A program made the translations under genes and the position numbers. 64,000 nucleotides of DNA from a virus (Duplodnaviria; Heunggongvirae; Uroviricota; Caudoviricetes). Numbering within the stretch: the first letter of the stretch is position 1; every line of letters starts with the position of its first letter. Where the stretch lies: the IMG/VR virus record IMGVR_UViG_2880372215_000004. One strand, written 5' to 3'. Positions 49,947-50,933 of this stretch are shown here, one piece after another. The notes below the pieces were generated by a model. The model worked only from the letters and a program-made list of their open reading frames with translations. It had not been told where the DNA came from and ran no database searches.

Positions 49947-50933
49947 TTATCCGATTTCAATTTTGTCCCACTCCCGCCCGCGACTGTCCCTATAATGCGC
50001 CGCCATTGAATCAGATTTATGTCCAAGAAGACGTTGTGCAAACTTGTAGCCAATCTGGTTCCGATATAGCCTCGCGGACAGACTACGTAGTTCATGAAAT
50101 GTCGGTGGGTCTCCATCAAACGAGATCCCGGATGCATTTCGCGCCTTTGTTAAATACCGTGATACTGTGGCTGGAGAAAGTGGTTCGTGATAGGTTGATG
50201 CGATTATTGTTTCACTGCTGCTGGCCTCCCTGCATTTCTGTAGTGTATCAACCAGTGAGATGTCGAGTGCGTCAATGGTTAGAGCCAGCGGAATGGCAAT
50301 TTTGGCTCCTGTTTTACTCTGTCCAATGTGAAGATGACCATCGTTTATGTCTGACCACTTCATTCTGCACAAATCGCCCACTCTCTGCCCTGTAACGACA
50401 GCTAAATCCATTGACAGCCTCAGCCAGATGGGGAGGTGCTCAGCAGCATGGTAAATAGCGACATACTCATTAGCTGTCAGCCTTGAGCGCCTTACTTCTG
50501 ACTTTGCTGCACGGGTTGTTGTTACTGGATTCGTTGCCACATGCCCCTCGGCTATTGCCCCTCGAAAAACGTCAACAAGGGTTGACCTGATTACTCTTGC
50601 GGAAACCGCTTTACCTTCTGCGACGTAGGTGTTTAGCATTGCTGCCACCTCTTTCGTTGATATGTCAGTGAGCGGTTTGTCCGGCAATTTTCTTCGAATT
50701 GCCCTGATTTTGCTGGCGTAGTCGAGTAATGTTTTCGGCTTGCTCCCCCTCTAGCTGAGGATTGTTTCATATCGATCAAGCCACGTATGAAGAGTGATTG
50801 AGTCAGTGCCTTTAACCCTGTCCAGCAATGATTCGTGCCCACTTTCGCTGAAAAGCTCAATGTTGGTGTGAATGCTTCTGAAATTGCTACTCTTCTGTCT
50901 CTTCCCAGCCCGAACTCTTTTTTCGTCCTCGGG
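49947..50933 (-). pseudogene. int: lambda-type integrase remnant: first ~30 codons missing and in-frame TAG at 50751-50753
   Basis: Catalytic C-terminus intact (HELRSLSARLY, GHKSDSMAAHYRD); upstream frame read by hand. Confidence 0.7.

Follow-up and report, generated by a model that had tools for sequence, protein, structure and literature searches.

The integrase pseudogene int', the complete phage attachment site (attP) beside it and the effector gene nleA very probably represent a piece of a yfaT-integrating lambdoid phage, still in its vegetative order, which was joined illegitimately to a tail-fibre/nleH/nleF module. In this study, these elements were investigated in a 64,000-nucleotide stretch of DNA (hereafter the window) from the IMG/VR record IMGVR_UViG_2880372215_000004, which proved to be E. 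coli O157 chromosome, with positions 40000-64000 being 100% identical to AR-0428 and about 36 other genomes. The locus lies between the tail-fibre genes and the right end of a prophage and carries T3SS effectors and IS elements, as in the definition of the exchangeable effector locus given in the available part of Nakamura et al. 2021 (PMC8112680), and it is the same locus as that of the ompW type (Sp9/CP-933P type), in which nleA, nleH, nleF, espM and nleG are found downstream of the tail-fibre genes in an IS-rich region. The first-pass annotation had recognized a non-functional, lambda-type integrase remnant inside the effector locus, and our data agree with this, as the integrase homology extends up to about position 50935 and is disrupted by three lesions. 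Beyond the existing annotation, our study makes a modest addition, namely the intact cognate attP, the assignment to yfaT and a hint that the site has been used as an exchange point. A literature search found nothing discussing the int' remnant. The coordinates of the features are collected in Table 1.

Table 1. Features of the effector locus around int', with their positions in the window.
Feature	Position	Strand	Remark
Resident tail-fibre 3' end and hairpin	46863-47001	+	End of intact gene (tfa) 46665-46934
nleA	47961-49286	-	Cargo linked to the P arm of the yfaT-type attP
Complete attP-like site	49667-49955	+	Aligned with annotated HK022, mEp235 and lambda attP
att core CTTCTGACATGGAAG	49859-49873	+	Common to attL and attR of yfaT-integrated O111 prophages
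Integrase pseudogene int'	49947-50935	-	Core-binding and catalytic domains complete; arm-binding domain truncated
Amber TAG in the int' frame (codon 89)	50751-50753	-	GAG in HK022; plus strand reads CTA
1-nt deletion (-1 frameshift, codon 48) in int'	50873/50874	-	Relative to HK022, lambda and O111 int
Illegitimate junction of int codon 28 and tail-fibre gene 3' end	50935	.	One shared C
Tail-fibre C-terminal gene 3' fragment and hairpin/terminator region	50935-51074	+	Left boundary of the nleH1-2/nleF module
nleH1-2	51113-52024	+	Second-module cargo
nleF	52090-52659	+	Second-module cargo
Second att relic, lambda-type attR	53341-53587	+	sib and P arm, core GCTTTTTATACTAA, B' matching the K-12 attB-lambda flank
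ISEc8	53588-56029		Interrupts the captured attB-lambda flank; no obvious target duplication

Identity and lesions of the integrase pseudogene

The int' pseudogene covers codons 28-356 of a tyrosine integrase of the lambda/HK022 family. In alignment, its repaired translation shares 87% amino acid identity with the intact Int of the O111 yfaT prophage, 82% with HK022 Int and only 67% with lambda Int, and the nucleotide identities to HK022 and lambda are 84% and 68.5%, respectively. The homology to lambda int that had been proposed for alignment is therefore real, but the nearest characterized relative is HK022 and not lambda. The HK022 int and attP record (X51962), reportedly originating from Yagil et al. 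1989, matched the window over 49667-50947 at 84% nucleotide identity (BLAST, E = 0), and the closest phage matches, HK022, mEp235 and Gally, ranged from 83.5 to 84.4% over the same interval, taking in both the annotated attP and int. The Pfam profile Phage_integrase (PF00589) matched int' with E = 3.7e-38, and the SAM_1 and Phage_int_M profiles matched as well. Judged from the sequence comparisons (BLAST E = 0, Phage_integrase E of 4e-38), the homology of int' to phage integrases is beyond chance. After repair of the frameshift, only positions 33-69 of the 74 in the Arm-DNA-bind_1 profile (PF09003) could be aligned; the profile matches thus point clearly to an ancestry in the heterobivalent lambda/HK022 family, with an incomplete arm domain. 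Lambda Int is likewise a heterobivalent tyrosine recombinase with arm-binding, core-binding and catalytic domains and the same catalytic residues, whereas the window copy is non-functional. The repaired int' protein aligns with solved lambda Int structures over residues 28-355, and all six catalytic residues (R212, K235, H308, R311, H333 and Y342 in lambda numbering) are kept, in agreement with the intact catalytic C-terminus reported earlier.

The minus-strand reading frame of int' ends at TAA 49947-49949. Translation of the minus strand from 51005 to 49947 gave integrase-like sequence throughout with a single internal stop, the amber codon already predicted by the first reading, which is 807 nt, or 269 codons, away from the point where the stop codon begins; a second stop was observed upstream, where the homology ends. 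The homology starts at codon D28 (GAC, 50933-50935), so that 27 N-terminal codons are absent; the loss of the start was rightly noticed earlier, but the count of about 30 codons was not exact. Codons 1-27 and the sequence upstream are replaced by a tail-fibre fragment, and xis and the int promoters are gone from the locus. The amber codon and the missing start of the earlier list of lesions both hold, and a third lesion, the single-nucleotide deletion in codon 48, had been overlooked. As a gene, int' fails to provide a functional integrase, since it has no start codon and no xis, pI or pL upstream, and carries the frameshift and the TAG; in comparison with HK022 int, the window int' is truncated, frameshifted, interrupted by an amber codon and without xis. 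RefSeq/PGAP describes it as a 'frameshifted; internal stop; incomplete; missing N-terminus' tyrosine-type recombinase/integrase, with a partial tail-fibre gene next to it. The int' gene has no function now and is an ordinary, already annotated integrase pseudogene.

An open frame of 246 amino acids with a TTG start (49947-50687) is still present within int'. This frame takes in all of the catalytic domain and a portion of the core-binding domain; it is highly improbable that a truncated recombinase or topoisomerase-like protein is produced from it. The open frame itself, the intact catalytic residues and a sequence that is nearly invariant across lineages would be expected of an expressed protein, but the near-invariance is accounted for by recent horizontal spread, as the flanking non-coding DNA is equally invariant. 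Such a protein would also be devoid of its arm-binding domain and retain only half of the core-binding one, and in O111 strains the 3' half has been deleted without replacement. A promoter scan of 49200-51200 recorded 5 sites against 5.6 expected, making the promoter and terminator scan uninformative, and no ribosome-binding or promoter signal was seen to stand out for this frame.

The attachment site beside int' and its yfaT target

A search for a cognate att core nearby, as had been suggested, revealed a complete attP located between nleA and int'. In a four-way alignment, its parts were recognized in order as the sib/tI hairpin (stems 49677-49686 and 49702-49711), P1 (CAGGTCACTAAT, 49722-49733), P2, the core and the P' sites, which overlap the int stop. 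The arm sites, sib hairpin and spacing are collinear with those of HK022, mEp235 and lambda attP, and the P1, P2 and P'1-3 sites and the sib hairpin known from lambda are all recognizable. HK022 displays the same layout of sib hairpin, P arm, core, P' overlapping the int stop and int on the opposite strand, with arm-type sites nearly identical to those of the window. The attP looks intact. The cores, however, differ: HK022 harbors CATCCTTTAGGTGAATAAGTTG against CCTCCTTCTGACATGGAAGTTG in the window, which indicates that the chromosomal target is different, and the lambda core and attB also differ from those of the window.

The core of the window was found at the attL of a prophage in yfaT (the DUF1175 gene) in O111:H- 11128, and at the attR in O111:H8 2009C-3675, with nleA and the same P arm adjoining a 3' fragment of yfaT that has been displaced. 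The prophage of 2009C-3675 is degraded to about 15.6 kb and consists of yfaT-attL, intact int, xis, Q, lysis genes, IS1203, nleG, nleA and attR. By BLAST, the attR side of this prophage matched window positions 47864-49873 at 92.1% and its attL side matched 49859-50947 at 85.5%, and the two segments overlap exactly on the 15-bp core, which is the signature expected when an attP is compared with an attR and an attL. The attP core thus matches the crossover sequence of the cognate attL and attR at the chromosomal yfaT, the target being the 3' end of the DUF1175 gene next to gyrA-yfaA, a recorded but infrequently used prophage site (PMC3603311). The O111:H8/O111:H- yfaT prophage (Int WP_000533670.1) therefore shares the core, an 87% identical Int, and nleA with the same P arm at attR; its circularization would recreate the order nleA-attP-int seen in the window. 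Unlike the window copy, which has the vegetative order, sits in another prophage and has a dead int, it occupies its own attB with int and xis intact.

Since the sites of the host prophage are ompW or ttcA, the attP was not made by the integration system of that prophage. The earlier view of a formerly independent integrative element needs revision in this respect, the att specificity being for yfaT and not for the site of the host prophage. We also considered a tandem-prophage junction at the own att of the host prophage (ompW) and rejected it, because the core is of the yfaT type. In the part of Nakamura et al. 2021 (PMC8112680) available to us, att sequences inside such prophages derive from the chromosome, with prophage-in-prophage attB-like sites from yecE, ykgJ/ecpE and ompW. 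The site beside int' does not belong to that class, being an attP and not attB-like, and the same portion of the text holds no discussion of a yfaT-type attP with an int' relic between nleA and nleH.

It is very improbable that nleA was brought here through site-specific integration of a small independent element, that is, an island and not a phage. The contiguity of nleA, attP and int', and the co-travelling of the pair in many genomes, would fit such an element. The site adjoining int', however, has both P and P' arms and is an attP, not an attL, and no attR or direct repeat of the core was found on the far side of nleA, which argues that the element was not integrated here by its own system. 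In addition, int, attP and the sib hairpin are modules of a kind typical for lambda/HK022 phages, the relative that was sampled is itself a lambdoid prophage, equipped with Q, lysis and Rha genes, and a tail-fibre fragment is located just upstream of nleA in E2348/69 and OkiPb01683. The first-pass annotation had interpreted int' as the scar of a formerly independent element that delivered nleA. The idea that it marks the vehicle of nleA is broadly right. Its linkage to nleA is a genuine and historical one, supported by the cognate attP and by the O111 yfaT prophage, in which int and nleA occur together; the vehicle appears to have been a full lambdoid phage instead of a small element.

Conservation and spread

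Approximately 445 of the 5,426 complete E. coli genomes match at least 80% of positions 49600-51100, and 421 of them do so at 99% identity or higher. Over int' and the junction, O157, EPEC O127:H6 E2348/69 and the bovine strain OkiPb01683 differ at only 3 of 1141 nt, and the TAG, the frameshift and the junction are common to all three. TW08637 and O111:H- 11128 carry the same int' pseudogene annotation. The same lesions recur in hundreds of genomes that were finished independently and belong to several serotypes, and are thus not sequencing errors; a sequencing or assembly artefact is refuted by the identical junction, TAG and frameshift and has a practically negligible chance of being true. 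An intact gene that resequencing might have revealed, which had been named as the outcome that would overturn the remnant, is excluded by the same genomes. The structure of int' is one old event that has spread horizontally, and is not recent.

In the ompW-type effector locus of O111:H- 11128 (locus positions 3383-4507), a secondary deletion was observed, extending from the nleG pseudogene across both nleA and attP as far as int'. O111 strains with this deletion retain nleA on the separate yfaT prophage.

Allele switch at the core and possible later use of the attP

Comparison of O157 with E2348/69 disclosed a sharp change of divergence at the core, with 148 of 1956 nt differing at 47900-49855 and only 4 of 1327 at 49874-51200. 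Two alleles of nleA and P arm, 7.6% apart, are thus joined to one right half of P', int', tfa' and nleH that is 99.7% identical (0.3% apart), and in the IMG/VR contigs, too, these two left alleles are combined with a single right half. At 49738-49855, the P arm of E2348/69 and OkiPb01683 agrees with that of the O111 attR at all 12 of the 12 variable sites, and right of the core both strains carry the P' arm and int' of the O157 type and not those of the O111 attL type, which first departs at about 49878. The switch interval is therefore limited to 22 nt (49856-49877), and it encloses the core.

As both allele classes share the int' lesions, at least one exchange took place after the death of the gene, implying an Int supplied in trans. 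This pattern is suggestive of the orphan attP having been used at least once after int died, with the trans-acting Int swapping the left arm that bears nleA. We put forward only tentatively, as a possibility with less than even chances, that the orphan attP may stay recombination-competent and serve as a cassette-exchange or landing site, at which the Int of a yfaT-type phage acting in trans replaced the left arm with nleA. Such use would amount to integration of a phage into a prophage at an attP relic and not at an attB-like site, and it would explain the two alleles on one right half. An unusually placed, RecA-dependent homologous crossover within the 22-nt patch of identity could in principle also produce the breakpoint at the core. 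An occupied copy of the site next to int' was not found among the 5,426 E. coli genomes, where the best coverage of a chimeric query was 80%, and the core-pattern search of IMG/VR returned only the relic and yfaT-attL classes. Should the orphan attP still be open to an Int acting in trans, effector alleles would have one more route by which to be swapped between prophages.

The tail-fibre junction and the proposed origin

At the junction, the two sequences have only a single base in common, and loose microhomology (TGTAG/GTAA) is scattered just past it. The sequence at 50935-51006 is the last 72 nt (24 codons) of a tail-fibre gene, and the whole fibre fragment is 92-93% identical to the resident copy, a divergence of about 7% indicating that it came from a different phage and not from local duplication. 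The first-pass annotation, which described a duplicated fibre-gene segment at the start of int', was therefore right in recognizing tail-fibre sequence; a fresh in-situ duplication does not fit the divergence, nor the position of the fragment at the boundary of the nleH/nleF module. A search with a chimeric query, in which the 5' part of tfa was joined to 50935-52100, revealed intact tfa genes followed directly by a paralogue of nleH with 88-90% identity in O145:H28 RM13514 and other strains. The order of tfa directly followed by nleH thus exists elsewhere as a natural phage arrangement, and the 72-nt fragment is the stump of such a gene. An intact tfa joined to the exact nleH1-2 allele of the window was not found in this search, only the 88-90% identical paralogues being so arranged.

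In E2348/69 (locus positions 3525-3644) and OkiPb01683 (4904-5023), an extra internal tail-fibre fragment was noticed just upstream of nleA, so that three tfa-derived pieces punctuate the effector locus of these strains. These extra pieces would fit an entry of every cargo module together with a tail-fibre stump of its own.

With reference to these observations, we propose that a first phage, of the yfaT type, would have carried the order tfa, nleA, attP (P-O-P'), int and xis, and a second lambdoid phage the order tfa, nleH1-2, nleF and attP. A single illegitimate recombination would have joined the two, or else a deletion in a phage-phage or phage-prophage cointegrate, with breakpoints at int codon 28 of the first phage and in the last 24 codons of tfa of the second, everything between them being lost. 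By this join, two cargo modules would have come to be stacked in a single exchangeable effector locus, at the cost of xis, the int promoters and 27 codons. The frameshift and the amber codon probably came after the join and before the spread of the composite, which would then have moved horizontally on prophages among EHEC and EPEC lineages. An intermediate with nleA, attP, full int and xis was found neither in the 5,426 complete E. coli genomes (chimeric query) nor in IMG/VR (core pattern), and the route is accordingly reconstructed instead of observed; as the closest intact Int is only 87% identical, the actual donor phage has not been sampled. Only nleA and the P arm are common to the window and the O111 yfaT prophage, the upstream DUF1076/nleG pseudogene and tfa not being shared, and how far the imported piece extends to the left is uncertain.

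An attP could likewise be regenerated if two yfaT phages had integrated in tandem, nleA then belonging to the first prophage and int' to a second one carrying nleH/nleF. Nearly all of the second prophage would then be lost in a deletion between int codon 28 and the 3' end of the tail-fibre gene, the composite would move to other prophages by homologous recombination, and the integrase would have delivered nleH/nleF. A complete attP with cargo of one phage on one side and the int of the following phage on the other is indeed the classical junction of a tandem lysogen; the P side and the P'/int side are unequally distant from the O111 prophage (92% vs 85.5%), and the histories of the left and right halves can be separated, with the switch at the core. 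Nonetheless, we consider this course of events unlikely, because it needs more steps, the locus is found in ompW or ttcA prophages and never in yfaT, and int and nleA form one element in the only yfaT prophage sampled. The att relic downstream of nleF also speaks against it, as this is a lambda-type attR with an attB-lambda flank and not of the yfaT type.

Host prophage and the second attachment-site relic

The lambdoid prophage of the window begins with a Rac-type integrase next to ttcA, and genomes of the AR-0428/EDL933 type match it. The window itself opens inside this integrase gene (intR, minus strand, about 1-1212). Its right arm displays the order gpJ, lom, stf, tfa, DUF1076' (a frameshifted DUF1076/nleG), nleA, int', tfa', nleH1-2, nleF, IS256' and ISEc8. 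In O157 of the Sakai/TR01 type, the same right arm is found in the ompW prophage (Sp9), with 98.8% identity over 42586-56029. Collinearity of the full window with TR01 (Sp9 in ompW) was considered and rejected, as the two are collinear over this interval only. The position of intR beside ttcA in the window lineage indicates that the Sp9-like tail and effector arm is attached to a different left arm than in Sakai/TR01, that is, a prophage-prophage recombinant.

The second att relic lies 2.4 kb downstream of int'. Its sib and P arm are about 78% identical to lambda, and its region is 77% identical to 49662-49803. In direct alignment, the sequence past the core continues not as P' but as the K-12 DNA right of attB-lambda in the ybhC-ybhB intergenic region (TTGAGCGAAAC...AAAAAGACAAAAAGTTGTTTTT). 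By this alignment, the relic is recognized as a lambda-type attR with a captured chromosomal flank, as would result from aberrant excision, implying that the nleH/nleF module was once at the right end of an attB-lambda prophage and was picked up by such an excision. The captured attB-lambda flank fits the theme of chromosomal att sequences inside prophages, as treated in the available part of PMC8112680.

Taken together, int', its attP and the lambda-type attR relic portray an O157/EPEC effector locus that grew as right-end cargo modules from several lambdoid phages, differing in integration specificity (yfaT, attB-lambda and ompW), were stacked onto one another, and they identify a yfaT-integrating phage as the vehicle of nleA. 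The worth of int' is that of a dated scar, in a pseudogene that RefSeq already flags in a bacterial genome ranking among the best studied.

Downstream of the lambda-type relic, BLAST revealed only a tRNA-Ser-like stretch. It is present in TW08637 (locus positions 10950-11045) about 100 nt past the attR relic, with about 80% identity to chromosomal tRNA-Ser genes, and absent from the window; it may be another captured attachment-site remnant. Beyond ISEc8 (56030-56850), the window continues with a fragment of the IS256 family and with the left end of a different prophage, where TR01 and TW08637 have the part with nleG and espM1. In EDL933, the continuation of the locus is found at another place and on the other strand, which suggests that an IS-associated inversion or rearrangement has occurred. 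A second tyrosine integrase truncated at its N-terminus, with an open frame of 183 amino acids, was observed on the minus strand at 57320-57871; it neighbors a DinI-like gene (56900-57142) and a truncated recE-like gene (57853-59097), and together they are the remnant of the left end of another prophage.
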